A stretch of DNA of 64,000 nt, from assembly GCA_047638815.1 (NCBI GenBank), contig JBLIMR010000002.1:168945-232944 (forward strand), written 5' to 3'. Position numbers and translations under genes: made by a program. The notes under the pieces are model-generated. The model did no database searches. It saw nothing but the letters and a program-made list of their open reading frames with translations, and was not told the origin of the DNA. Below are positions 30,464-55,273 of this stretch, piece after piece. How positions within the stretch are numbered: the stretch's first letter is position 1; each line of letters starts with the position of its first letter. This stretch comes from Gammaproteobacteria bacterium. GTDB taxonomy: Bacteria > Bacteroidota > Bacteroidia > Flavobacteriales_D > JABDKJ01.

Positions 30464-30715
30464 TTAGTCTTTACGTTCTTCTTCTTCTTCGTCATCATCA
30501 TCTTCATCGTCAGTTACATCATCATCATCCACAACAATATCCTCTGTTCGAGCATCATTATCTATAATAACAAGAGCATTAGTAGATTTAGCTGCATCGA
30601 AAGATTCCAGATCATCAAAAGTCTCTAACTCAGTCTTAGTACAAGAACTTAAGCCAAAAGCCATGAATAGCGCCAGGACGGCTAAAAGGGACAATATTTT
30701 TCTTATTTTATTCAA
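30464..30715 (-). CDS. small lipoprotein with poly-Asp/Glu C-terminal tail
   Basis: TTG start gives the signal MNKIRKILSLLAVLALFMAFGLSSC (lipobox LSSC). The tail is DIVVDDDDVTDDEDDDDEEEEERKD. A complete promoter lies 20 nt upstream. Confidence 0.5.
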   Translation of the reverse strand: MNKIRKILSLLAVLALFMAFGLSSCTKTELETFDDLESFDAAKSTNALVIIDNDARTEDIVVDDDDVTDDEDDDDEEEEERKD

Positions 30716-30782: not shown

Positions 30783-33743
30783 TTATGATGCGCGTTGTAC
30801 GATAGGCATTAGGATCTCAACGGTTGTACCGATGCATTTATTGTTTTTATCAAAAATATCTTTGGGTCCAACGATTTCAAATTTCTTATCTGTCATTTTC
30901 CCAAAGAGCTTGATTCTGTTGTTTATTATCTCAACGCCTTTAGAATCATGATTAACCTGACCTTTCTTATTAATCTGACTTTGACCGATCCCGATACCAT
31001 TATCAGAAATCTTGATCTTAACAAGATCATCTTGCTTTAAGATATCTAAGGAAACGGTTCCTAAGGTTTCTCTGGGTAATAAACCATGCCAAATACTATT
31101 TTCTAAAAAGGGTTGAAACAACATCGGTGGTATTTCAATGGTATTAATATCAATTTCGGGTGAGATATTGATTTTATACTCAAAACGATTTTTGAATCGC
31201 ATATGCTCCATCGATAAATAAAGTTCAATTCTCTCTAACTCGTCTCCAAGCACTGACCAGTTATTTTCCGTACTATCAAGATTTTTCCTAATGAGTTTTG
31301 CAAAATTGGTTAAATAGGTATTGGCCGATCTTTTATCTTCTCGGTTTATGTAGTACTGAATAGAATTAAGTGCATTAAAAATAAAATGTCTATTCATGGC
31401 AGAATTAAGAGATTGCTGTTCTAGATCTAATAGCTTGGAACGAATAATAATCAACTCAGTTTCATTCTTTTTCTTCAAAACAGATTTTCTCCAGCGGTAC
31501 AGCAAATAAGCAAATGCTAAAACTAATAATGAAGAGATAAATAAAAACCAGGTCGTAAGGTAATAAGGAGGTTTTATGGAAAAAGAAAACCTCTTAGGGA
31601 CCGCACTCCAAACTCCATTTTTATCTGCAGCCATCAACTCCAAGGTATAATCACCATGGGCCAAGTATGAGTATGTAACAAAATTAGATGCTGTAGGAGG
31701 AAGCCAATCAGCATCGGCACCATTTAATTTGTACTTATATATTACATCTTCGGGAGAATCGAATGAAATAGCTGTGAAATCAAAAGTGATATGATTGTCC
31801 TTATAATCAAGGATGAGATTCTCATAAAGACCATTTTCTGCAGACAACCCTTCGGAATATTCTTCAAGGTTTTCCTTCAGCATAAAAATCCGAATCCCGT
31901 TAATAAAAACATCTGGAGCGACAGGTTCATTAAGACTAACCAAAACATCTACATCAACAGATACCAGACCTTTGCTGGTCCCAATATACAGATTACCTGA
32001 CTTAGTTTGATAACTGGCATTTAAATTACACTCCAAATTCGGCAACCCACTTGATCTATTAAAATGTCTAATGTTTGAGTTGCCCTGATTCTGGTTTTCT
32101 TTGATTGTTAAAAGATGGAGTCCATTATTTGAACCTATCATAAGCTGATTATCTAAAAGATGTAAAATGTTAACCGGATCATTTTCTCTACTTTTAAAAT
32201 CGTACCTGGTAATAATTTCATCCTTCATCACATCCAATCCACTTTTGCTACCGATCCAAAGGCGGTCATATTTATCCATCGCCAATGCATTAACATCGTT
32301 ATCAGAGAGGCCGTTTTGCTCGTCAAAATGGCTCCAGAAATTTCCATCGAAACGATATATTCCATTTTCATTTCCCACCCATAAAATACCATCATGATGT
32401 ACAATGGATCTCACTCTTTTTATGGGTATTCCCAGCTCCGATCCATGCGCTTTAAATTCCTGGCCATCGAAACTTGAAAGGCCCTCTTTATGACCAATCC
32501 ATATTACTTGATTTTCATCTTGTATCAGAGAAGTGATTCTAGTACCATTGAATATATTTTCATTTTTCAATTCCCTAATTTCACCGTGATCATAAATTTT
32601 CAGTCCGTGAGTATTACCGAGCCAAACCTTTCCAGACAGATCGACCAAGGATGACCACACAGCACCATCTCCAAGCTCTGGAATTTCCACTAAACTATCT
32701 GAGGGACTTAAATAAGCTACGCCATCGCCATATGAACCTAACCAGAGATTGTTTTCTTGGTCCTCACATATGCTCATTATGATGTCGCTATGACTGTTAA
32801 TATTCTTAATGCTAGTTGTAAAAAGCCAACCAGTAAAACGAAATATGCCTTGCCCTTTACTAGCCAGCCAAAGCGATCCATTGGTATCACTTAAAAGAGA
32901 TTCGATATTAGCATTTTCCAAACCGTTGCTCGCATCCAAATTCAAAAATGAATCCCCATCAAAACAGCTTACACCTTCAATTGTTGCAAACCATATTTTA
33001 CCTTTATTGCTTTCAATGTTTCTGACATTGTTATATATAAGCCCTTGTTCCTCTGTATAATTTCGGATCTTCCCATCCGAGATTTTGTATACTCCTTTCC
33101 TAAAAGTGCTTACCCATAGGTTTTCATCAACAACCTCAATATCGGTGATACTTATTGATTTGAGTTCAGGAGCGAGTAATTCTTTGTTTTTAAGATTAGC
33201 GTCTAATGTGAATAGACCTTCCGTTGTTGCGATTATTAACTTGTCTTTGTATGCCACACATTTCCGAACGTAGTCTACATTCTTTATGTCGTAAATAAAC
33301 TGATTGTCATTAATGGAAAACTGAACCACACCTCTTCCATTTGTGCTTAAAATTAGGGTATCTGAATGAATGGAAGTAATGCTGAGAACCCTGAAGTTTT
33401 TGATTTCTTCTGGGAAATTGTATGGAGTGAAACGGCCACCTGAGTGGTGAGAAATCCCGCCTTGCATACCTACCCAAAGTCCTTTTTTAGAATCTTCAAA
33501 AAGACTATAAATCGAGTTGTCAATCAGGCCATCTTTTTTATAATAATTGACGAATTCATGGCTATCGAATTTACTCAATCCATTGGCTGTACCAATCCAA
33601 ATAAAACCATTTTGATCTTGCAACATGGTTTTCGCTTGTGACTGCGCCAATCCGTCTATATTATTGTAATTATCGAATTGATAATACTGTCCAAAAGCAG
33701 ATAAAATAATTGTAAGAAATAGACCAGTAAGTATGAATCGCAT
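30783..33743 (-). CDS. sensor histidine kinase: periplasmic two-component-regulator propeller repeats + Y_Y_Y domain, TM helix, LytS/YehU-type kinase core
   Basis: Signal peptide, then many repeats of the G(L/I)..N.V..I..D..G..W(I/V)GT type. A Y_Y_Y-like region (YKYKLNGADADW) and one transmembrane helix follow, then a His_kinase-type H-box (NRHFIFNALNSIQYYI) and an HATPase N/G box (FLENSIWHG...DNGIGI). Confidence 0.85.
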   Translation of the reverse strand: MRFILTGLFLTIILSAFGQYYQFDNYNNIDGLAQSQAKTMLQDQNGFIWIGTANGLSKFDSHEFVNYYKKDGLIDNSIYSLFEDSKKGLWVGMQGGISHHSGGRFTPYNFPEEIKNFRVLSITSIHSDTLILSTNGRGVVQFSINDNQFIYDIKNVDYVRKCVAYKDKLIIATTEGLFTLDANLKNKELLAPELKSISITDIEVVDENLWVSTFRKGVYKISDGKIRNYTEEQGLIYNNVRNIESNKGKIWFATIEGVSCFDGDSFLNLDASNGLENANIESLLSDTNGSLWLASKGQGIFRFTGWLFTTSIKNINSHSDIIMSICEDQENNLWLGSYGDGVAYLSPSDSLVEIPELGDGAVWSSLVDLSGKVWLGNTHGLKIYDHGEIRELKNENIFNGTRITSLIQDENQVIWIGHKEGLSSFDGQEFKAHGSELGIPIKRVRSIVHHDGILWVGNENGIYRFDGNFWSHFDEQNGLSDNDVNALAMDKYDRLWIGSKSGLDVMKDEIITRYDFKSRENDPVNILHLLDNQLMIGSNNGLHLLTIKENQNQGNSNIRHFNRSSGLPNLECNLNASYQTKSGNLYIGTSKGLVSVDVDVLVSLNEPVAPDVFINGIRIFMLKENLEEYSEGLSAENGLYENLILDYKDNHITFDFTAISFDSPEDVIYKYKLNGADADWLPPTASNFVTYSYLAHGDYTLELMAADKNGVWSAVPKRFSFSIKPPYYLTTWFLFISSLLVLAFAYLLYRWRKSVLKKKNETELIIIRSKLLDLEQQSLNSAMNRHFIFNALNSIQYYINREDKRSANTYLTNFAKLIRKNLDSTENNWSVLGDELERIELYLSMEHMRFKNRFEYKINISPEIDINTIEIPPMLFQPFLENSIWHGLLPRETLGTVSLDILKQDDLVKIKISDNGIGIGQSQINKKGQVNHDSKGVEIINNRIKLFGKMTDKKFEIVGPKDIFDKNNKCIGTTVEILMPIVQRAS

Positions 33744-33749
33744 AGTATT

Positions 33750-34508
33750 CTATTTCATTACTATTTCTAAGAAAGTTGACATTTTTCTTCTCGCAATAGG
33801 CACGCGAATATTGTTGGTCAAAACAGCCACATTCCCCTCTCTTCTTTCATATCCTTTGAGGTGATGGTGGTAGTTGATAATATGAGATTTATGTGTTCTG
33901 AAAAAAGTGCTTCCGCTTAGTTTTTCCTCGTACACACGAATGTTTTTACTGCTGATATGCTTATCTCCGTTCTCAAGATAAATCATCGTATAACTTTCGT
34001 TGGCTTCAAGGTGAACGATATCTTTACTTTGAAGAATGGCATAACCATCTTTTGTTGGAACACTTATTTTAGAATTATCGACACCTGGTCCATCCTGAGT
34101 CAACAGTCGCTCTAGTTTTATTGATAGATCAACTTGACCTTCGGATTTTTGTCGTTCTAATATTTTTTGTCCACATGATTCCAAGTCATCTATTGAAATA
34201 GGTTTTTCTAAATAATCAAGTGCATTTTCCTTAATTGCCTTTATACCATAATCATCATGTGCAGTGGTAAAAACTAGATGAAAATTTCTGTGTGGAAGGT
34301 TTTCCAAAAATTCAAATCCGTTCATTCCAGGCATTTTTATATCCAGAAAAATCACTTCAGGTTCAAACTCTTCAAATCTTTTCAATGCAGTTTCTCCAGA
34401 ATCCGCTGTTGCAACTATTTCCAGGTCTGGAGTATACTCTTTGATCATCATTTCAAGGTTTTCACGACCATTGAATTCATCATCTATTATAAGGGTTCTT
34501 AGCTTCAT
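33750..34508 (-). CDS. LytTR-family response regulator
   Basis: Receiver domain (LIIDDE...FLDIKMPGMNG...KP) plus a LytTR DNA-binding domain (FFRTHKSHIIN). It ends 6 nt before the kinase start. Confidence 0.85.
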   Translation of the reverse strand: MKLRTLIIDDEFNGRENLEMMIKEYTPDLEIVATADSGETALKRFEEFEPEVIFLDIKMPGMNGFEFLENLPHRNFHLVFTTAHDDYGIKAIKENALDYLEKPISIDDLESCGQKILERQKSEGQVDLSIKLERLLTQDGPGVDNSKISVPTKDGYAILQSKDIVHLEANESYTMIYLENGDKHISSKNIRVYEEKLSGSTFFRTHKSHIINYHHHLKGYERREGNVAVLTNNIRVPIARRKMSTFLEIVMK

Positions 34509-34640
34509 TATTTTGTCACATTAGAAATTCAAGGTCAGAATTATTATTGACTTTTACAATGAATTACAGTGAAGGGCATCTCTCATTTATTGAAGGCTAC
34601 CTTTGATTGATTAAAAGAATTGAATGCAATACTTGGGGAA

Positions 34641-35426
34641 CTAGACTTTGCCCATACTTTTTATTCTAGCGACAAAATCTTTGACTCTTTTTTTGGAAAC
34701 GGGGAGCTTTAGTCCATCCTTCAAAATAGCATAATTACCTCTATCCCTTCTATACTCTTCCAAAAAATTCAAATTGACAATATAGGATCGATGAATTCGA
34801 AAGAACATATTTTCTGGAAGGAAGTTTTCGTAAACACCCAAAGTCCGTGTGTCAAGAAAATTGCTGCCATCCGTTAGTACAATGTTGGAGCAGTTACTTT
34901 TGGCTTCAACGAACAATATTTTGCTAGGATCTATCAGTTTGATTCCCTTAGAGTGACTGATACTTATTTTATTGAATCTGATGTTAGAAAATTGCTGATA
35001 TACTTTTTTTAGAGAATCGATATAATCATCCTTCATCTCCGGATTTTCGATTATTGAATGCCGCAATTTGGATACTTTATTGACGGCAGCTTCAAGATCA
35101 TTAATATCAATAGGTTTTAATATATAATGAATAGCATTTGCATTCATTGCCTCGACAGCATAATCCTTGAAGGCAGTAACAAAGATCACCAGGAAGCTAG
35201 GGTCATTGAATTTTGTGAGCAAATCAAAGCCTTCGGTCCCAGAGGGCATTCGAATATCCAAAAAAATTAAATCAGGATCATGCTTGATTATTTCTTCATA
35301 CGCCACATCAATATTACCGGCCTTCGCGACAATATTAATTTCAGGACAAAACTCATCCACCATCATGGCCAAATTCTCTCTAGCCAATTCCTCATCATCA
35401 ATTATAATAGCACGAATCGTTTTCAC
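34641..35426 (-). CDS. LytTR-family response regulator (second copy, GTG start)
   Basis: Receiver domain (IIIDDEE...FLDIRMPSG...KP) plus a LytTR domain (FFRIHRSYIVN). Confidence 0.85.
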   Translation of the reverse strand: MKTIRAIIIDDEELARENLAMMVDEFCPEINIVAKAGNIDVAYEEIIKHDPDLIFLDIRMPSGTEGFDLLTKFNDPSFLVIFVTAFKDYAVEAMNANAIHYILKPIDINDLEAAVNKVSKLRHSIIENPEMKDDYIDSLKKVYQQFSNIRFNKISISHSKGIKLIDPSKILFVEAKSNCSNIVLTDGSNFLDTRTLGVYENFLPENMFFRIHRSYIVNLNFLEEYRRDRGNYAILKDGLKLPVSKKRVKDFVARIKSMGKV

Positions 35427-35791: not shown

Positions 35792-36037
35792 ATGAAAACA
35801 TTAGAGACCGTAGGTGTCATTGTGCACGGGCTTCAGAAGTTAATCAAACTTGATTATCAACCGATTTCACAAAAGGCGATGTACGATATTTGCGACCTCA
35901 ATGGACGCGTCATTCTATCTGGGAACATCCAAGATGAAATAACTCAAATAAATATTAGCGACCTCATCAGCAAACAATATATTCTTTTGATATTGGATGG
36001 TGATATGGCGGTAAGTCGGAAGTTTGTTGTTTCTTAA
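35792..36037 (+). CDS. stand-alone T9SS C-terminal-sorting-domain-like ORF (possible gene remnant)
   Basis: The 81 aa resemble only a type-A Por secretion tail (YDICDLNGRVILSGNIQDEITQINISDLISKQYILLILDGDMAVSRKFVV). There is no signal peptide or cargo domain. An in-frame stop lies at 35753. Confidence 0.4.
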   Translation: MKTLETVGVIVHGLQKLIKLDYQPISQKAMYDICDLNGRVILSGNIQDEITQINISDLISKQYILLILDGDMAVSRKFVVS

Positions 36038-36176
36038 ATAGATTTTTTCAATCAATCATTAAAAAACCCAATTCAATGAATGAAGTGCGGCTTTTGATTG
36101 ATTGTGCCCATTAGGGCTTACTTCGATTCAACTGCGTTCCGCTCAGCATAAATACTTCGACAAGCTCAGCACATCG
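36031..36176. repeat. decayed copy ('unit 0') of the 146-bp tRNA-3'-end repeat
   Basis: gtgcccattagggct (36104-36118) matches the tRNA end gtgcgcccactagggct. The flanks show patchy homology to the repeat unit (aaaaccc..gaatg.aag; cgttcc.ctca..ataaa) with similar spacing. It also holds a 10-bp inverted repeat, caatcaatca / tgattgattg (36049-58 / 36095-104). Confidence 0.6.
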
Positions 36177-36554
36177 CTTCTCGCCCAGTAAAATTTCAGC
36201 CAAAAGAAAACCCCTACATTGTTGAATGTAAGGGTTTCTAATTAGTGCGCCCACTAGGGCTCCCCGAAAGTTATTTTCTAAATATTTCGTTCCTCAATAA
36301 AGAAAATATCAATCGGGATAAACTTCTCGCCCAGTAAAATTTCAGCCAAAAGAAAACCCCTACATTGTTGAATGTAAGGGTTTCTAATCAGTGCGCCCAC
36401 TAGGGCTCCCCGAAAGTTATTTTCTAAATATTTCGTTCCTCAATAAAGAAAATATCAATCGGGATAAACTTCTCGCCCAGTAAAATTTCAGCCAAAAGAA
36501 AACCCCTACATTGTTGAATGTAAGGGTTTCTAATCAGTGCGCCCACTAGGGCTC
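36177..36554. repeat. tandem repeat, 146-bp period, 2.6 copies, each carrying the last 17 nt of the tRNA plus its terminator
   Basis: Units 36177-36322 and 36323-36468 differ at one base (T36243 / C36389). The partial third unit (36469-36554) is identical to unit 2 and runs into the real tRNA. The 17-mer tgcgcccactagggctc occurs at 36246, 36392 and 36538. Confidence 0.95.
36491..36530 (-). terminator. rho-independent terminator of the tRNA (copies at 36345-36384 and 36199-36238)
   Basis: The minus-strand RNA GAAACCCUUACAUU-CAAC-AAUGUAGGGGUUU forms a stem of about 13 bp with one G-U pair, followed by a UCUUUUGG tail. It starts 7 nt after the tRNA 3' end. Confidence 0.8.
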
Positions 36555-36611
36555 GAACCTAGGACCACCTGATTATGAGTCAGGTGCTCTAACCAACTGA
36601 GCTATGGGCGC
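36538..36611 (-). tRNA. tRNA with anticodon CAT (elongator Met or lysidine-type Ile2; not initiator)
   Basis: 74-nt cloverleaf. Acceptor GCGCCCA/TGGGCGC; D arm GCTC-AGTTGGTTA-GAGC; anticodon arm CCTGA-CTCATAA-TCAGG. Variable loop TGGTC, T arm CTAGG-TTCGAGC-CCTAG and discriminator A; CCA is not encoded. The G1-C72 pair and the absence of a GGG/CCC anticodon stem argue against an initiator. Confidence 0.95.
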
Positions 36612-36690
36612 AATTTGTCGTAAAACAAATTTGGTCGGCAAAGTTAATTCTTTAGTATTTCTAAACAAATATTATTTTATTTGTTCATTC

Positions 36691-37323
36691 ATGAAATATT
36701 CTCAATTCGATACAATAATATTTGACCTCGGTGGAGTCCTTCTAAATATTGATTACACACTCACAGCCAATGCCTTCAAGGATCTAGGAATACGTGATTT
36801 TGACGGGTTATATTCTCAAGCAAAGCAAAATTCTGTGTTCGATGATTTGGAAATTGGGAAACTATCACCTAAAGGCTTCATTGATTATATCAACCTAACG
36901 TGTTCCAGCAACTTTAGCCAAGATCAAGTAATTGCTGCCTGGAATGCCATGTTGTTGGACTTTCCGATTGAAAGGATGATTTTATTGGAGAAACTGCAAA
37001 AAAGCCATAATCTTATTCTCATGAGCAATACCAATGAAATTCATATTATGGCCTTTAAAGAAATCATGGAAAAATCTTTTGGATATCAGAGGTTTGAGAA
37101 CGTGTTTGATAAACTCTATCTCTCCTCACAAATTGGCAGACGAAAACCTGATGAGAGTACCTTTGAATGGATATTATCCGAAATCAAATTGAATGCTACA
37201 CAATGCCTCTTTATTGATGATAGCGAGCAACATATTATTGGAGCTAGAAAAATAGGGATTACTTCTCACCATCTACAACACAATGAAGAAATAACTGAGT
37301 TATTTAAATCGGAAGATTTTTGA
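36691..37323 (+). CDS. HAD-superfamily hydrolase (subfamily IA)
   Basis: Motif I FDLGGVL, motif II SNTN and motif IV FIDDS. The start is set at ATG 36691 because the tracked start at 36604 overlaps the tRNA. Confidence 0.75.
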   Translation: MKYSQFDTIIFDLGGVLLNIDYTLTANAFKDLGIRDFDGLYSQAKQNSVFDDLEIGKLSPKGFIDYINLTCSSNFSQDQVIAAWNAMLLDFPIERMILLEKLQKSHNLILMSNTNEIHIMAFKEIMEKSFGYQRFENVFDKLYLSSQIGRRKPDESTFEWILSEIKLNATQCLFIDDSEQHIIGARKIGITSHHLQHNEEITELFKSEDF

Positions 37324-48067: not shown

Positions 48068-51000
48068 TTGACAAACTCCCCCTCGAAAATAAATAAGACT
48101 TTGCAATATGTGCTTGCTACTATGATGGTAGGTTGCTTATATGCATTCACCTTTGCGGAAACAACCGATAACGTTTCATGGAAAAAAACCGAGCTATATC
48201 TGCCGGTCGATTCGCCTGAGATTGTTCTTCCTTATCCTATAGACGACACCTACAATCCATATGGAGGTGGTGGATTGATAGATCTAAATACACCAACTAA
48301 TATATCGGATAGTATGTCTTATGATCCAGTTTCTGGGGAGTATAACTTCTTTCAGACAATGGATGGGATTAACTTTAGAAATCCAAGTTCGATGACTTCT
48401 GATGAATTTTTGGATTACTCTTTAGATGACATTATTAAATCCAACTGGCAGGACTTTGTGCAATCAAGTAATACTGAAGATCAACAAGACAACAATCCAA
48501 ATCCATTTAGGCCTACGTTAGATATAGAAAGTAAGTTGTTTAATGACATTTTTGGGAGTAACAAGATTGAAATTAGACCACAGGGGTCCGCTGAATTAAC
48601 TTTTGGAGTAAATTATTCCAAAACGGAGAATCCAAGGATTTCGGTTCGTCAACAAAGGAACACTGTCTTTGATTTTGATCAGAAAATTCAATTAAATCTT
48701 ATTGGAAATATTGGGGATAAGATGAAACTTCAATTTGATTACAACACGGAATCATCTTTTGATTTTGAGAATCAGATGAAGCTGGAATACACTGGAAAGG
48801 AAGATGAGATTATTCAGAAAATTGAGGCTGGAAACGTGACGCTACCATTATCAGGATCTCTTATTTCAGGTAGTCAAAGTTTATTTGGGATTAAAGCTCA
48901 GACCAAGTGGGGTAAATTAACGTCAACAACTATCCTATCTCAGGAAAAAGGCGAGCGTAAAGAAATCAATGTAGAAGGTGGCGCACAAACTCAAGATTTT
49001 GAAATCACCGGAGATGACTATGAAGCGAATAGACACTATTTCTTAAGTAACTATTTCCGTGACCAGTATGATGATGCAATGTCTGATCTACCTATTGTAA
49101 ATTCGGCAGTAGGTGTAACTAGAATTGAGGTATGGGTAACCAATAAAAGAGCCGCCTTTGAAGAGAATAGAAATATAGTAGGGTTTACAGATATAGGAGA
49201 GGATCAGATTTATTGGAAGGCAAATGACATTCCTGTTGGACAGGTGGATCTTAGCCCAACAGCTTTTCCAGATAACGAAAACAACAGTTTGTATGCCTCA
49301 GTTGCAGGTAGCCCTGCCATTAGATCATTTTCCCAGGCTTCAGGAACTTTAACAGCGTTGGGTTACAGCCCATCAAATTTATTTGAGGATTTAGAAAGTG
49401 CAAGAAAATTGACAACCAATGAATACTCTTTAAATTCAAGGTTGGGTTTTATTTCATTAAACCAATCATTAAACAATGATGAGGTATTAGCGGTAGCCTA
49501 TGAGTATACCTTGAATGGTCAGACCTATCAGGTGGGTGAATTTTCGACAGATGGAATCGAGCCGCCCAATGCATTAATGGTAAAGTTATTGAAATCTACC
49601 ATTACAAACCCGAACAATATGCTTTGGGATTTGATGATGAAAAACATCTACTCAATTGGTGCGTATCAAGTCAATAAGCAAAATTTCAGACTTGATGTAT
49701 GGTACAATGATCCAACGGAAGGCTTTGACATTCCTTTTATCCCAAAAGAAGGGGTAGATCAATTACCATTAATTAATGTTCTTAATTTAGATAGGATAGA
49801 TCAAAACGGAAATGGAACACCAGACGGAGTTTTCGATTATGTTCCAAATGCTGAGAGTACTGGTGGAACCTTGAACGAGAAAAATGGTAGAGTTTATTTT
49901 ACTTCCGTTGAGCCCTTCGGGTCTTTATTAGATTCAAAACTTGAAGCCGCTGGTCTTTCAGAATCTGACAGAAATGACATAGTATTTCAGGCCTTATATG
50001 ATTCAACCAAAGTTGCAGCACAACAGATTCCTGAGCTCAATAGATTCAAATTAAAAGGGACATATCAATCGGCATCTTCAGATGAGATATCGTTGAACGC
50101 AATCAATGTGCCACAAGGTTCTGTTAAAGTTACTGCCGGTGGTGTTCAATTAACTGAAAATTCAGACTATACCGTAGATTATAATTTGGGGAGAGTGAAA
50201 ATTCTGAATTCTGGACTCCTGGAATCTGGCACACCTATAAAAATTTCGCTAGAGAGTAATTCAGGGTTGAACTTTCAAACAAAGACAATGGTCGGGAACA
50301 GGTTCGATTATGAAGTCAATGAGAATCTTCTTGTTGGAGGTACAATATTGAATCTAAGTGAAAGACCACTTACTCAAAAAGTAGATGTAGGATCTGAGCC
50401 AATCAGTAATACTATATGGGGAGCAGACGTAAACTATTCAAAGGAGTCAGAGTTCGTAACAAAGTTAGTGGATAAACTGCCATTTTATGGAACGAAAGAA
50501 ACTTCAAATGTCAACTTCTCAGCAGAATTTGCACAACTTCTTCCTGGCCACTCTAGATCTATTTCAAAAGAAGGGATATCCTATGTGGATGACTTTGAAG
50601 GAAGTTACTCAACAATAGACCTAAGATCATGGACGAGATGGTCTTTGGCGAGCACGCCACAGGGGCAAGATGTTTTGTTTCCTGAAGGAAACTTGATAGA
50701 TAGTCTAGCATATGGATTCAATAGATCTCATGTGTCTTGGTATACCATAGATAATTTATTTTATGGGCAAAATAGTTCTGCACTCCCACCGAATGTTAAT
50801 GCGGATATGCGATCAGATCATAGAATGAGAGAGGTACGTGAAAAAGAAGTTTTTCCATCCAAAGAATTACCTCCAGGATCATTACCAACCTTAGCAACAT
50901 TTGATTTGACATACTATCCAGATGAAAAGGGGGCATATAACTTCAACTCCAATGTCACTTTAAATGCAAATGGAACAATAGGTTATGGTATTGGTGACTC

Positions 51001-54000
51001 ACCTTCTGAAAAGTGGGGTGGTATTATGAGAGATCTTACTACGACTGACTTTGAACAAAGTAATATCGAGTTTATCCAGTTTTGGATGATGGATCCATTT
51101 AATGAGGATTCCGAGAACACTTCAGGTGGACAGTTATATTTTAACCTTGGAAATATTTCGGAAGATATCCTTCGAGATTCTAGAAAAAGTTTTGAAAGTG
51201 GCTTGCCAAGTGAAAGTGATCAAACTGTAAATATTGAAGAAACGGCATGGGCTACTGTACCAACCAGTCAGGCAATTGTAAATGCTTTCGATAATACGAC
51301 TAATTCTAATGCGGACCAAGATGTAGGTTTGGACGGAAGAAGTGATGCCAAGGAGGCAGAATTTATGGCTCAGTACTTGGGTGAGCTTCCAGGTCCGATT
51401 GCCGACATTGCTATTCTTGATCCAGCATATGATAACTATCACCACTTTCGAGGTACAGATTATGATGATGATGAACTTGATATTCTTCAACGATACAAAC
51501 GATACAACGGGTATGAAGGGAATACAGTAACAGCAAGTGATTCTCCGGAGAATTATCCTACTCAATCTCCACTTGGGCCAAGTACCGAAGATGTAAATCA
51601 AGATCAAAACTTGAGTAAAACAGAGAGTTATTTTCAATACAAAGTGAACTTAGTTCCCTCTCAGATGTCTGTGGGTAATAACTACATTACTGATAGACAA
51701 GTTAGAGCTGTAACGACTGCTAATGATGAAACGAGAGAGGTCATTTGGTATCAGTTCAAGATTCCGGTTAGAGATTTAAATAGAGCTTCAGCAGAAAGAA
51801 TTGGTGGAATTCAAGATTTCCGATCCATCAGATTTATGAGAATGTTCATGAAGGGTTGGTCTGAAGATGTAACCCTGCGTTTTGCTAGATTAGAGCTTGT
51901 GAGAGGAGAATGGAGAAAGTATAATGGATCTCTTGAATCTGTTTTTGGACAGCCTAATGAGACGGATCCAACTTTCGATATTTCAGCAGTGAATTTGGAG
52001 GAAAATAGTAATAAAACACCTATTAATTATGTGCTCCCTGATGGTATTACTAGAGAGTTGGCAGTTGGTTCGACAGCGGCAACGCAACTTAATGAACAAT
52101 CACTAGCACTTAATGTTTGCGACTTATCAGATGGTGTTTCGAAAGCAGCCTTCAGAAATTTGAATATCGACATGAGACAGTACAAAAAACTTAAAATGTT
52201 TATTCATGCTGAGGATGCTACCAACAACGGAAATATGGGATATGGAGACTTGACTGTCTATGTCCGATTAGGGTCTGATTTCAAAGACAATTATTACGAG
52301 TATGAGGTGCCAGTTTATCCAACAGCATGGGGTGATAATCAACCAGAACAGGTGTGGCCCCAAGAGAATGATATGGAGATAGTTTTTGCGGATCTTAAAA
52401 GAGCAAAGACCGAAAGAGATTTCAATCAGTGGCCAGTGAATGTTCCATATGAAGAGATTATTGAAAATGGAACAAGAAAGCTCACGGTAGTTGGAAATCC
52501 AGTGCTTAGTGCCGTGAAGACCATAATGATTGGAATTAGAAATCCAGCTGCAAATAGTAATCCTTGGATGGCTAGTGATGACGGTCAGGACAAATGTGCT
52601 GAAATATGGGTTAACGAACTTCGATTGTCTGATTTTGATGAAAGAAGTGGGTGGGCGGCAGTTGCAAGAGTAAATACGCAGTTAGCAGACCTTGGAAACT
52701 TGTCAGTGGCTGCGAATATGAGTACACCAGGTTTCGGTAGTATTGAGAAGAAGGTTAACGAAAGACAGAAAGAAGAGATTCGAGGAATTGATGCATCATC
52801 AAATATTGAATTGGGTAAATTTTTGCCTGAGGAATCTGGGATTAAAATTCCACTATATATGGGATATTCAGAAACGGTTTCTAATCCGCAATTTGATCCA
52901 TTGTCCCCAGATATTGAAACTAGTGATGTTAGTGGGAGTCTTACTGGAGAAGAAAGAAGAGCTTATTTAAGAAGAAGACGAGATTTCCTAAAGAGAAGAA
53001 GTATAAATCTTACTAATGTGAGGAAGGAACGTGCCAGCGGTGCATCCAAACCTCATTTCTATGACATTTCGAACTTTAGTGCATCATACTCCTATAGTGA
53101 AATAACGGCATATGATATCAATACTGAGTTTAATAATACAAGAAACTACCATGGAGGTTTAACATATAATTTTGCTCCAAAGCCGAAGACATTTAGTCCA
53201 TTTGCTTCTGTTGGGTTTATTAATAAGTCCAAATGGTTTAAATTAGTGAAAGATTTCAATGTGAATCTAGGGCCTAAGCAATTCTCTTTTAGAACCGATG
53301 TTGATAGAACTTATAATGAGTTTCAAGCAAGAAACAACTCAACATCTTTTAACTTTCCACCACAATCTCAATATACAAAGACTTTCAATTGGACTAGAGT
53401 TTATGATTTGAAATATGATTTAACAAAATCACTTAGGGTCAATTTCTCGGCCAACAACAGGGCGATTATTGGAGAACCTGCTGGAATCGTTGATAGAGAA
53501 GATGATAGTTACGCGGATCTTAAAGAGGAAGTATGGGGTAACATTGAGAACTTTGGTGAGACTACAAATTATAACCACACCTTTAATGTCAGTTATAAAC
53601 TACCATTAGATAAGCTACCACTCACAAATTGGTTAACTGTAAATACAGGATATGCCGGAACTTATGATTGGCAAAGGGCTCCATTTGCACAAGATTCATT
53701 GCTCGCAAATACTATTCAAAATTCAAGAAACATGAATGTGAATGGACAGGTGAATATGCTTAATCTGTACAACAAGGTTCCATTCTTGAAAAAGGTTAAT
53801 AAGGCTTCTAAAAGTAAAAGAGGGAGCAGAGGATCGAAAGGTAAAGTCAAGAAAGATGCTAGTGGTGACGAAGATGAGGAGAAAGAAAAAGAAAAAAGCA
53901 ATTTCAAGATTGGTCATGAGGCAGCCAAGTTCTTAATGATGTTGAAGAACATTAATGTGACATACACTCAAACAGAAGGACAGCTTCTTCCTAGTTATAC

Positions 54001-55273
54001 ACCAACTACAAATGTCTTGGGGATGGATAATAATTTTAGCGCTCCTGGTTTTGGTTTTGTATTTGGTAGTCAGGATGAAGATTATCCTTTTTATGCAGCA
54101 AGAAGAGGTTGGATAAGTCAGAACAATAATCAAAATATTGCGCATACGAATATTTACTCGGAGAATTTAAACCTGCGAGCCAATATCGAACCGATAAAGT
54201 ATTTCAGAATAGATCTTACTGCGACCAAAACACAGGGAAGGAACAATTCAGGATTTTTCAGATTCAATGAAGATCTACAAGATTATGTTGATGACAATAA
54301 TGTTGAAACTGGAAATTACAGCAGTTCAATCATATCTCTAGGGACAACCTTCTCTAAGGATGATGACAATAATATAAGCGAAATTTTCGGTGATTTCATA
54401 AACAACAGAAGTGTTATTTCTGCAAGATTGGCAAACTTGGATCCGAATGGAGAATTTAGGCCAGGATATGGAAGTAGTTCTCAGGATGTTGTTATTCCTG
54501 CATTTATTGCGGCATATACAAACAAGAGTCCACTGGAAGTAAATCTTAGTCCACTATCAGTAAATCCAATGCCTAACTGGAGAATTACTTATGATGGTCT
54601 GTCCAAAAACAAGAAGATCAAGAAATTATTTAAATCATTTACACTCGGTCACGCTTATCGTTCGACATATACCCTATCTTCTTATACCTCTAACTTAAAC
54701 TTCAGATCTGAAGGGGATAGAGCAACAGATATAAACGGAAACTTTATTTCTGAACTACAGATCCAAGGGATCACCATTTCTGAGCAACTTAGCCCATTGA
54801 TCAATGTTGATATGACTTGGCAAAATAGCTTGATCTCGAAAGTGGAATTGAAAAGAAATAGAACATTGAATCTATCCTTATCGAATTATCAACTTACTGA
54901 GAATAGAAGTAATGAGTTGGTTGTAGGTTCGGGATATAGGTTTAAAAATGTGAAATTCCCATTTAAAATTCAAGGTAAAAAACGTCCTGAAAATGATTTG
55001 AATGTAAGGGCGGATTTGTCTATTAGAGATAACCTGATTATCACACGTATCATTGTTTCTGATGATGAAGGAAATGAAGTGGAACAGAACCAGTTAACTT
55101 CAGGTCAAACAATATTTTCATTGAAAACTTATGCGGACTATACCCTAAATAATCAATTAAACTTTAGAGTATTTTACGATCATCAATTTAATCAACCTCA
55201 ACTTACGTCTATATCCTTTCCAACAACTAATGTAAGTGCGGGTATAGCTATTAGATTTACACTAGCACAATAA
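48068..55273 (+). CDS. sprA: T9SS translocon / gliding protein SprA
   Basis: A single 2401-aa ORF following ruvA. Its size, giant beta-barrel-like composition and C-terminal SAGIAIRFTLAQ fit SprA (Sov). Confidence 0.9.
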   Translation: MTNSPSKINKTLQYVLATMMVGCLYAFTFAETTDNVSWKKTELYLPVDSPEIVLPYPIDDTYNPYGGGGLIDLNTPTNISDSMSYDPVSGEYNFFQTMDGINFRNPSSMTSDEFLDYSLDDIIKSNWQDFVQSSNTEDQQDNNPNPFRPTLDIESKLFNDIFGSNKIEIRPQGSAELTFGVNYSKTENPRISVRQQRNTVFDFDQKIQLNLIGNIGDKMKLQFDYNTESSFDFENQMKLEYTGKEDEIIQKIEAGNVTLPLSGSLISGSQSLFGIKAQTKWGKLTSTTILSQEKGERKEINVEGGAQTQDFEITGDDYEANRHYFLSNYFRDQYDDAMSDLPIVNSAVGVTRIEVWVTNKRAAFEENRNIVGFTDIGEDQIYWKANDIPVGQVDLSPTAFPDNENNSLYASVAGSPAIRSFSQASGTLTALGYSPSNLFEDLESARKLTTNEYSLNSRLGFISLNQSLNNDEVLAVAYEYTLNGQTYQVGEFSTDGIEPPNALMVKLLKSTITNPNNMLWDLMMKNIYSIGAYQVNKQNFRLDVWYNDPTEGFDIPFIPKEGVDQLPLINVLNLDRIDQNGNGTPDGVFDYVPNAESTGGTLNEKNGRVYFTSVEPFGSLLDSKLEAAGLSESDRNDIVFQALYDSTKVAAQQIPELNRFKLKGTYQSASSDEISLNAINVPQGSVKVTAGGVQLTENSDYTVDYNLGRVKILNSGLLESGTPIKISLESNSGLNFQTKTMVGNRFDYEVNENLLVGGTILNLSERPLTQKVDVGSEPISNTIWGADVNYSKESEFVTKLVDKLPFYGTKETSNVNFSAEFAQLLPGHSRSISKEGISYVDDFEGSYSTIDLRSWTRWSLASTPQGQDVLFPEGNLIDSLAYGFNRSHVSWYTIDNLFYGQNSSALPPNVNADMRSDHRMREVREKEVFPSKELPPGSLPTLATFDLTYYPDEKGAYNFNSNVTLNANGTIGYGIGDSPSEKWGGIMRDLTTTDFEQSNIEFIQFWMMDPFNEDSENTSGGQLYFNLGNISEDILRDSRKSFESGLPSESDQTVNIEETAWATVPTSQAIVNAFDNTTNSNADQDVGLDGRSDAKEAEFMAQYLGELPGPIADIAILDPAYDNYHHFRGTDYDDDELDILQRYKRYNGYEGNTVTASDSPENYPTQSPLGPSTEDVNQDQNLSKTESYFQYKVNLVPSQMSVGNNYITDRQVRAVTTANDETREVIWYQFKIPVRDLNRASAERIGGIQDFRSIRFMRMFMKGWSEDVTLRFARLELVRGEWRKYNGSLESVFGQPNETDPTFDISAVNLEENSNKTPINYVLPDGITRELAVGSTAATQLNEQSLALNVCDLSDGVSKAAFRNLNIDMRQYKKLKMFIHAEDATNNGNMGYGDLTVYVRLGSDFKDNYYEYEVPVYPTAWGDNQPEQVWPQENDMEIVFADLKRAKTERDFNQWPVNVPYEEIIENGTRKLTVVGNPVLSAVKTIMIGIRNPAANSNPWMASDDGQDKCAEIWVNELRLSDFDERSGWAAVARVNTQLADLGNLSVAANMSTPGFGSIEKKVNERQKEEIRGIDASSNIELGKFLPEESGIKIPLYMGYSETVSNPQFDPLSPDIETSDVSGSLTGEERRAYLRRRRDFLKRRSINLTNVRKERASGASKPHFYDISNFSASYSYSEITAYDINTEFNNTRNYHGGLTYNFAPKPKTFSPFASVGFINKSKWFKLVKDFNVNLGPKQFSFRTDVDRTYNEFQARNNSTSFNFPPQSQYTKTFNWTRVYDLKYDLTKSLRVNFSANNRAIIGEPAGIVDREDDSYADLKEEVWGNIENFGETTNYNHTFNVSYKLPLDKLPLTNWLTVNTGYAGTYDWQRAPFAQDSLLANTIQNSRNMNVNGQVNMLNLYNKVPFLKKVNKASKSKRGSRGSKGKVKKDASGDEDEEKEKEKSNFKIGHEAAKFLMMLKNINVTYTQTEGQLLPSYTPTTNVLGMDNNFSAPGFGFVFGSQDEDYPFYAARRGWISQNNNQNIAHTNIYSENLNLRANIEPIKYFRIDLTATKTQGRNNSGFFRFNEDLQDYVDDNNVETGNYSSSIISLGTTFSKDDDNNISEIFGDFINNRSVISARLANLDPNGEFRPGYGSSSQDVVIPAFIAAYTNKSPLEVNLSPLSVNPMPNWRITYDGLSKNKKIKKLFKSFTLGHAYRSTYTLSSYTSNLNFRSEGDRATDINGNFISELQIQGITISEQLSPLINVDMTWQNSLISKVELKRNRTLNLSLSNYQLTENRSNELVVGSGYRFKNVKFPFKIQGKKRPENDLNVRADLSIRDNLIITRIIVSDDEGNEVEQNQLTSGQTIFSLKTYADYTLNNQLNFRVFYDHQFNQPQLTSISFPTTNVSAGIAIRFTLAQ

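Follow-up and report, generated by a model that had tools for sequence, protein, structure and literature searches.

A tRNA(CAT) 3'-end and terminator array with a 146-bp period, a possible product of site-specific integration

The window analysed here is a 64-kb stretch of contig JBLIMR010000002.1, from an uncultured Flavobacteriales-like bacterium, which contains a single tRNA gene, with the anticodon CAT, on the minus strand at 36537/8-36611 (ARAGORN and Rfam). Downstream of this gene its 3' end is repeated in a short array. In the direction of the tRNA the locus reads tRNA[...core]-T-H-core-T-H-core-T'-D-core'-hairpin-end of convergent 81-aa gene. The core is the 17-mer GAGCCCTAGTGGGCGCA, which corresponds to tRNA positions 57-73, from the fourth T-loop base through the discriminator base. 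T and T' are terminator-bearing blocks, H is an imperfect hairpin, D is a block unlike H, and core' is a degenerate core. With a probability of roughly 0.55, the array represents cargo-free scars of site-specific integration at the T loop of tRNA(CAT), similar to miniature cis-mobilizable elements (CIMEs), which were amplified by ordinary recombination. This explanation is built on the anatomy of the array, the diversity of the sequences flanking the cores, their common boundary in the T loop, a difference in copy number among otherwise identical assemblies, and the absence of the array from relatives.

Anatomy of the array and its junctions

Three exact cores were found in the window, the first of them being the 3' end of the tRNA gene itself, and a fourth core carried 3 mismatches; all four are on the minus strand (Table 1). 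When up to 3 mismatches were allowed, 0.02 matches were expected by chance in the 64 kb, and the observed four were reached in 0 of 100 shuffles. Further copies of the core, T, H or D were absent from the window. Tandem Repeats Finder (TRF) delimited the array to 36177-36554 with a period of 146, 2.6 copies, 99% matches and no indels, and a separate repeat search gave the same register. Framed as T+H+core, the stretches 36392-36537 and 36246-36391 are 100% identical. Over the 378 nt of the repeat the copies differ at one base, 36243, so that the trailer of T' is CTAATTAG and that of the other copies CTGATTAG.

An earlier interpretation made from the letters alone, referred to below as the sequence-only reading, had described two exact downstream recurrences of the last 17 nt of the tRNA and a period of 146 bp with two nearly identical full units, and both descriptions were confirmed. 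It had also stated that the same 129 nt follow each copy. This holds for the first two perfect cores, which precede the full 129 nt (T, 69 nt, and H, 60 nt), but not for the third, which is followed by the 69 nt of T' and then by D. What had been taken for a fourth, heavily diverged copy turned out to be a diverged core (14/17) and not a diverged unit, D being unrelated to H.

In the T block a 7-nt trailer leads to a 14-bp stem closed by a 4-nt loop, after which come the TTTTCTTTT tract of the terminator and a tail of 25 nt (z -5.0). The features of an intrinsic (Rho-independent) terminator, a GC-containing stem-loop and a U tract, were found three times, after each perfect core. H is nearly all imperfect hairpin; its 17-nt arms are 82% complementary and 21 nt apart, with z of -2.8 and -3.5 on the two strands, and all its copies are identical, without sequence variants. 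The terminator hairpin and the second, long imperfect hairpin of the sequence-only reading were therefore both verified. The core holds a small palindrome, GCCC-N4-GGGC. The intervals between the cores, 129 and 126 nt, hold no real open reading frame (ORF). According to the pairing read from the sequence, the changes in core' would break both T-stem and acceptor-stem pairing. Core' is probably the displaced original 3' end of the tRNA and the hairpin after it is a candidate for the decayed original terminator, which may also terminate the convergent 81-aa gene.

On its left side the core has three flanks without relation to one another: the tRNA body, H and D. On the right it is followed by T/T', by the decayed-looking hairpin (after core') or by T2, a different terminator found in contig L002 of the same strain. 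The H|core and D|core' junctions are non-homologous, yet their boundary is common within 1 nt, at position 57/58 in the T loop. Neither T+H nor T'+D showed similarity to tRNA positions 1-57 (P 0.85 and 0.77, respectively). The combination of a constant core, varied flanks and a common T-loop boundary is the signature of attachment-site (att) junctions. For elements which integrate into tRNA genes (tDNAs), crossover subsites have been described in the anticodon loop, in the T loop and at the junction of the T and acceptor stems, those in the T loop and at the T-stem junction being the usual ones for tDNA islands (PMC4383910), and a mid-T-loop boundary accompanies the series of 20-bp repeats at Dehalococcoides ssrA (PMC3146451). 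Such an integrating element carries the 3' part of the gene, regenerates the tRNA gene and displaces the old 3' end. The intact cores are each followed by a strong terminator (z -5.0 for T and -6.1 for T2) and the degenerate core by a weak hairpin with A/T tracts, which fits each of them having been a former working 3' end of the gene. The proposal of the sequence-only reading that these are recombination-type junctions and not decayed tandem tRNA genes was supported, as nothing in the units is like tRNA positions 1-57.

Two simpler derivations of the blocks were considered and rejected. Decayed tandem tRNA genes, or a promoter with a truncated tRNA, would be suggested by the 3' end of H, which agrees with the tRNA promoter region at 17 of 22 positions, but the agreement has a P of 0.10 and similarity to tRNA 1-57 is lacking. 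D as a diverged H was rejected on the grounds that the best local match between the two is 11 nt (P 0.045) and that D has no hairpin (z +0.6), although the adjoining core' is still 82% identical to the core.

Two minor features of the blocks were recorded. D contains an internal direct repeat in which TGCTGAGC...TCGAAGTA occurs twice, in a 19-nt and a 30-nt version. The tails of the T blocks (36469-36493, 36323-36347 and 36177-36201) contain TACTGGGCG, which matches core positions 7-15 (TAGTGGGCG) at 8 of 9 bases; the pattern TA.TGGGCG has just 3 more occurrences in the window on both strands (shuffle P 0.04). The tail motif may be a still older core remnant, or it may have arisen by chance.

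Copy number and relatives

Contigs with the same locus, designated here by L numbers, were gathered through exact-protein look-ups. They come from short-read assemblies of an evidently near-clonal population. The L008/L033 contig is identical to the window over 11.9 kb and has two units, whereas the L001/L032 contig, identical over 20.7 kb save one 146-bp unit, reads tRNA-T-H-core-T'-D-core'. At least two units were present in L006, which ends within the array. The copy-number variation that the sequence-only reading had suggested looking for was accordingly found, as one versus two units among otherwise identical assemblies. The difference is probably a true polymorphism, and the exact copy number is left uncertain by the short-read assemblies.

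The contigs L002, L006, L007, L009-L011 and L034 break in the region, with L034 starting at a core. The H-core-T(G) junction, in which T has the G of the tRNA-proximal copy, was present in the window and in the independent JGI assemblies L008/L033 and L006. The array is real and not an artefact, because this junction exists only where two or more units are present and, extending beyond the 17-nt core, cannot be assembled from a single-copy locus.

L002 differs from the window by 1 mismatch in 3.9 kb. In this contig the second core, that after H, is followed by T2, which shares only CTAAT with T', and the contig stops there. A walk past T2 was attempted via spurious ORFs; the 40-aa minus-strand ORF had no exact match among recorded proteins, the protein search with the T2-core-H ORF matched only the 30-aa core-H ORF of L034, and an element was not reached.

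The nearest homologues of the HAD gene, which lies on the other side of the tRNA, are 54-60% identical (the look-up used the 239-aa gene call, as the 210-aa version has no exact record). The contigs L025, L027-L029 and L030 keep the same tRNA adjoining the HAD gene. The tRNAs of L025 and L030 are identical to that of the window and stand behind a conserved TTTG-N19-TAnCTTTG promoter; the promoter is kept 5' of the same tRNA in L031 as well. The relatives have a single core apiece, with terminators of their own that are unrelated. Since this is so, the array is lineage-specific and recent, and it is not the conserved structural spacer that the sequence-only reading had named as the finding which would speak against recombination scars.

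Origin of the array

According to the explanation by integration, incoming DNA would have brought its own copy of tRNA positions 57-73 together with a terminator, the T block. Its integration would have restored the tRNA gene and moved the former 3' end farther downstream; the oldest end displaced in this way would be core', together with the terminator that has since decayed. Subsequent decay would have left about 60 nt of the integrated DNA in each module (first D, then H), with two att-type cores around DNA without integration genes. The resulting one-unit state, tRNA-T-H-core-T'-D-core', would hold two direct copies of an 86-bp repeat (core+T) with H between them. The well supported next step is an unequal exchange between these copies, which would have produced the second identical 146-bp unit and the difference in copy number. 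Either homologous recombination or an integrase acting in trans on the core could have brought about this exchange. The H-core-T2 junction hints that another element may have been accreted at one of the internal att sites; when an additional element is accreted at the attR of a CIME, a junction of this kind results (PMC5704250). We infer that the junctions were produced by a recombinase, that the integrated DNA originally had a greater length and that the array is functionless.

The middle T carries the tRNA-proximal G variant and not the A of T'. If the two units arose from one, the exchange took place within the core plus 2 nt (19 of the 86 nt of the repeat), because the middle T has G. This is a mild hint which slightly favours exchange at the core, as a homologous crossover placed at random would fall there in about 22% of cases and an integrase that acts at the core would invariably place it there. 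The hint vanishes if the A of T' is a later mutation.

The sequence-only reading had gone further and proposed repeated addition of units at the tRNA-proximal end, with an age gradient along the array. Such serial addition was not demonstrated, and the second unit is most simply explained by unequal exchange between the 86-bp core+T repeats. The age gradient rested on one degenerate core; the T' adjoining the third core is 68/69 identical to T, hence the third module is not simply older. Neither the serial-addition history, nor the age gradient, nor any function of the array is supported. A role as decoy att sites, or an effect on tRNA processing, is speculation.

Several results weigh against site-specific integration. 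An integrase was absent among the 30 ORFs of the window scanned with Pfam and among the neighbours with precomputed Pfam assignments, in agreement with the sequence-only reading, which had seen none in the window. The element sharing the core (attP) which that reading had called for was not found in any collection searched: GTDB genomes, JGI metagenome contigs, IMG/VR, and phage and plasmid collections yielded no attP-bearing element and no other copy of the core with its flank, T, H or T2. The identity with the tRNA begins at G57, so that just 4 of the 7 T-loop bases are common. The near identity of T and T', while H and D are unrelated, demands either two elements with the same 69-nt arm or homogenisation of T' by conversion. 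It is unparsimonious to assume two separate reductions, each to about 60 nt. The one-versus-two difference could be a repeat collapse in short-read assembly, and the T2 junction consists of 46 nt at one contig end, at a presumed genomic location.

The absent attP partner is weak evidence, because the collections apparently do not hold this population. In IMG/VR the exact core, T, H and T2 gave 0 matches each, and blastn of the two units against phages and plasmids gave no match. The partial-core pattern DGAGCCCTAGTGGGCGCA, which excludes true tRNAs in that the core is not preceded by the T-loop C, was matched 4 times in GTDB genomes and 9 times in metagenome contigs. All of these matches were rejected as unrelated chance contexts, none of them near a tRNA. 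Most were in GC-rich contigs, and three were within a reading frame with a dUTPase-like motif according to our own translation.

It is unlikely that the array arose entirely by other means, that is, by illegitimate or slippage duplications of the tRNA 3' end and its terminator, with filler DNA and unequal crossing-over and with the T-loop boundary as a coincidence. That neither a recombinase nor an attP was found in the searches made is consistent with such an origin. The 146-bp units also act like an ordinary tandem repeat with variable copy number, and the core palindrome could favour template switching. However, the non-homologous H|core and D|core' junctions share the same boundary within 1 nt, and a third right flank, T2, is attached at the same core. 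Simple slippage does not give an 86-bp duplication split by 60 nt of unrelated DNA. The orientation of the fragments and their place downstream of the tRNA fit the signature of integration (PMC4383910).

Somewhat more doubtful is a working, miniature non-autonomous integrative element, in which a 146-bp circle of core+T+H re-integrates at the regenerated tRNA core or at internal cores by means of an integrase encoded elsewhere, and so multiplies at the site and offers extra landing sites. The 100% identity of the two units, the variation of copy number among otherwise identical genomes and the tRNA-proximal variant in the middle T, which fits exchange in the core, would all be expected. The H-core-T2 junction of L002 suggests an internal core as a target, and H is an imperfect inverted repeat, as are many protein-binding arm sites. 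On the other hand, an integrase or a second locus with the module was not found in the searches made, and, for an integrase that must form a synapse with arm sites, a circle of 146 bp is very small. The same data are accounted for without a recombinase by unequal homologous exchange between the 86-bp repeats, and T matches the resident T', which is unexpected of a foreign module. Should this improbable account be true, the 146-bp module would be the smallest att-to-att unit known, and H-core-T2 in a clonal sister would be a snapshot of the core as a landing site.

A functional RNA array is very unlikely. It would require either that H contains a promoter, from which an RNA of about 55-60 nt with the tRNA 3' end and the terminator is transcribed, or that the successive terminators shield the tRNA from the convergent 81-aa gene. 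H ends in TAACTTTC, which stops 3 nt short of the core and differs by one base from the TAnnTTTG box of the tRNA promoter, with ATTG 21 nt upstream, and the T stem has A/T tracts on both sides and could terminate in both directions. These promoter boxes and their spacing are off consensus, and the similarity of H to the region upstream of the tRNA, given above, is not significant. Core+terminator had weak Rfam matches to NsiR1 (RF02399), a small RNA (sRNA) encoded in tandem repeats in Nostocales, but the scores (23.4, 23.4 and 20.5 bits; E 0.19 for 23.4 bits) are far under the gathering threshold of 39 and are carried by the terminator. Like the NsiR1 array, the present one consists of tandem repeats each ending in a terminator; unlike it, it belongs to an unrelated phylum and has neither promoter evidence nor conservation, and it is no member of that family. 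The array is not kept in any relative, and its copy number varies within one clone.

Mis-assembly of a single tRNA-terminator region into repeats can be practically dismissed: many contigs of the population do break within the region and the assemblies disagree on copy number, but H-core-T' and H-core-T(G) extend beyond the 17-nt core, cannot be derived from a single-copy locus and are found again in assemblies made independently from different samples (window, L001, L006 and L008).

The locus is a small cargo-free instance of known phenomena, namely tDNA fragment scars, CIME-like accretion and copy-number change of tandem repeats. The likeness to the tDNA islands detected by Islander/TIGER (PMC4383910) lies in an intact tRNA gene followed by same-orientation copies of its 3' end, here three cognate fragments downstream on the minus strand, in a boundary at the T loop/T stem (G57 to 73), in the regenerated gene with a new trailer and in the most distal fragment being the most damaged. 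In contrast to these islands, the tDNA and its fragments enclose neither an integrase nor cargo, the cores are spaced 129 and 126 nt apart instead of at least 2 kb (island length 2-200 kb, against a period of 146 bp), two modules are identical, and a cognate element was not found.

CIMEs, in the account of Pavlovic 2004 as summarised in PMC5704250, retain attL/attR-type repeats around DNA without integration or transfer genes. Similarly, exact 17-nt cores enclose T+H with no genes inside, although the cores would be att sites only by inference, and H-core-T2 at an internal att-type core resembles accretion at a CIME attR. Described CIMEs differ in being kb-scale decayed integrative and conjugative or integrative and mobilizable elements with recognisable parents, whereas the present modules hold a terminator and a 60-nt hairpin and have no known parent. 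The 20-bp direct repeats at Dehalococcoides ssrA (PMC3146451) likewise form a series of 3'-end repeats downstream of a tRNA-like gene, with some intervals lacking integration modules and with repeat numbers varying by strain. There, gene-carrying islands extend over up to 100 kb and a serine integrase, DsiB, is present; here the interval is 129 nt and there is no known recombinase. Variation of the variable-number tandem repeat type, by unequal crossing-over or slippage, is matched by the identical 146-bp units, one versus two in otherwise identical genomes, but the founding 86-bp repeat split by 60 nt and the varied core flanks require a separate origin.

If the explanation by integration is correct, the locus is a compact case of tRNA integration leaving layered scars, each with a former 3' end and its terminator, and such scars would later become ordinary variable tandem repeats. 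If the internal cores are active att sites today, the array would offer mobile elements a small, natural landing pad. In annotation, short arrays of tRNA fragments should not be called pseudo-tRNAs or sRNA genes. Island finders requiring an integrase and at least 2 kb miss such arrays.

Feature coordinates, the tRNA gene and its neighbourhood

Table 1. Features of the tRNA(CAT) locus, in window coordinates unless a contig is named.
Feature	Position	Strand	Remarks
tRNA(CAT) gene	36538..36611	-	ARAGORN; Rfam RF00005, 75.1 bits
Putative tRNA promoter, Bacteroidetes-type	36639..36669	-	TTTG, 19 nt, TAACTTTG; read from sequence
Core 1	36538..36554	-	Part of the functional tRNA, positions 57-73; exact GAGCCCTAGTGGGCGCA
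T block, copy 1	36469..36537	-	69 nt; tRNA trailer, intrinsic terminator (stem 36499-36530), 25-nt tail
H block, copy 1	36409..36468	-	60 nt; imperfect hairpin, arms 36409-36425 and 36447-36463
Core 2	36392..36408	-	Exact copy of tRNA 57-73; left flank H instead of tRNA
T block, copy 2	36323..36391	-	Equal to copy 1, including G at third trailer base; terminator stem 36353-36384
H block, copy 2	36263..36322	-	Identical to copy 1; with its unit, absent from L001/L032
Core 3	36246..36262	-	Exact copy
T' block	36177..36245	-	68/69 identical to T, differs at 36243 (CTAATTAG); terminator stem 36207-36238
D block	36120..36176	-	57 nt; unlike H, without hairpin
Core'	36103..36119	-	Degenerate, AAGCCCTAATGGGCACA, 14/17
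Hairpin with A and T tracts	36049..36104	-	Directly after core'; z -2.9 on minus strand
T2 junction	L002:1-46, contig end		JGI 3300057242, Ga0535639_0000453; CTAATACAGTAAAGGGATTGAGAGCATTTGACTCTTGATCCCTTTT

CCA is not encoded in the tRNA(CAT) gene. The product would be either a Met tRNA or a lysidine-Ile2 tRNA: C4:G69 and C5:G68 are present as in E. coli tRNA-Ile2, yet the D arm is like that of elongator tRNA-Met. The TTTG-19 nt-TAACTTTG arrangement upstream is, by the consensus of Bacteroidetes promoters, likely the promoter of this gene. The strand opposite the tRNA (36537-36611, plus) matched the Rfam family Plastid-ycf2 5'UTR with 53.8 bits, under the gathering score of 65.7; this match is presumably due to a tRNA(CAT) gene on the strand opposite that region in plastids. 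Within the tRNA lie the ends of two Logan contigs, which come from different runs, on the 5' side of the anticodon loop (L003:1 and L004:1; window 36579/36580). This suggests that the samples behind them hold another sequence with the first 32 nt of the tRNA in common which diverges thereafter.

The convergent 81-aa gene ends beyond the hairpin of the array. It is a stand-alone ORF (35792-36037, plus) with a weak match to Por_Secre_tail, the C-terminal sorting domain of the type IX secretion system, and it is conserved with equal length beside the locus in L025, the closest relative. There (L025:1683-3630; GCA_024279715.1, JAJRRH010000163.1), compared with window 35792-37323, the identical tRNA and its promoter have the opposite orientation with respect to the 81-aa and HAD genes on either side. 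Between the tRNA and the 81-aa gene this relative has a gene for uracil-DNA glycosylase, which the window lacks.

Just upstream of the array (30783-35426, minus) a Y_Y_Y/His_kinase hybrid sensor of 986 aa is followed by two adjoining LytTR response regulators of 252 and 261 aa. An 83-aa ORF (30464-30715, minus) has a lipoprotein-like N-terminus and an extremely acidic C-terminal run (DDDDVTDDEDDDDEEEEE). At 48068-55273 (plus) the window contains a very large ORF of 2401 aa.

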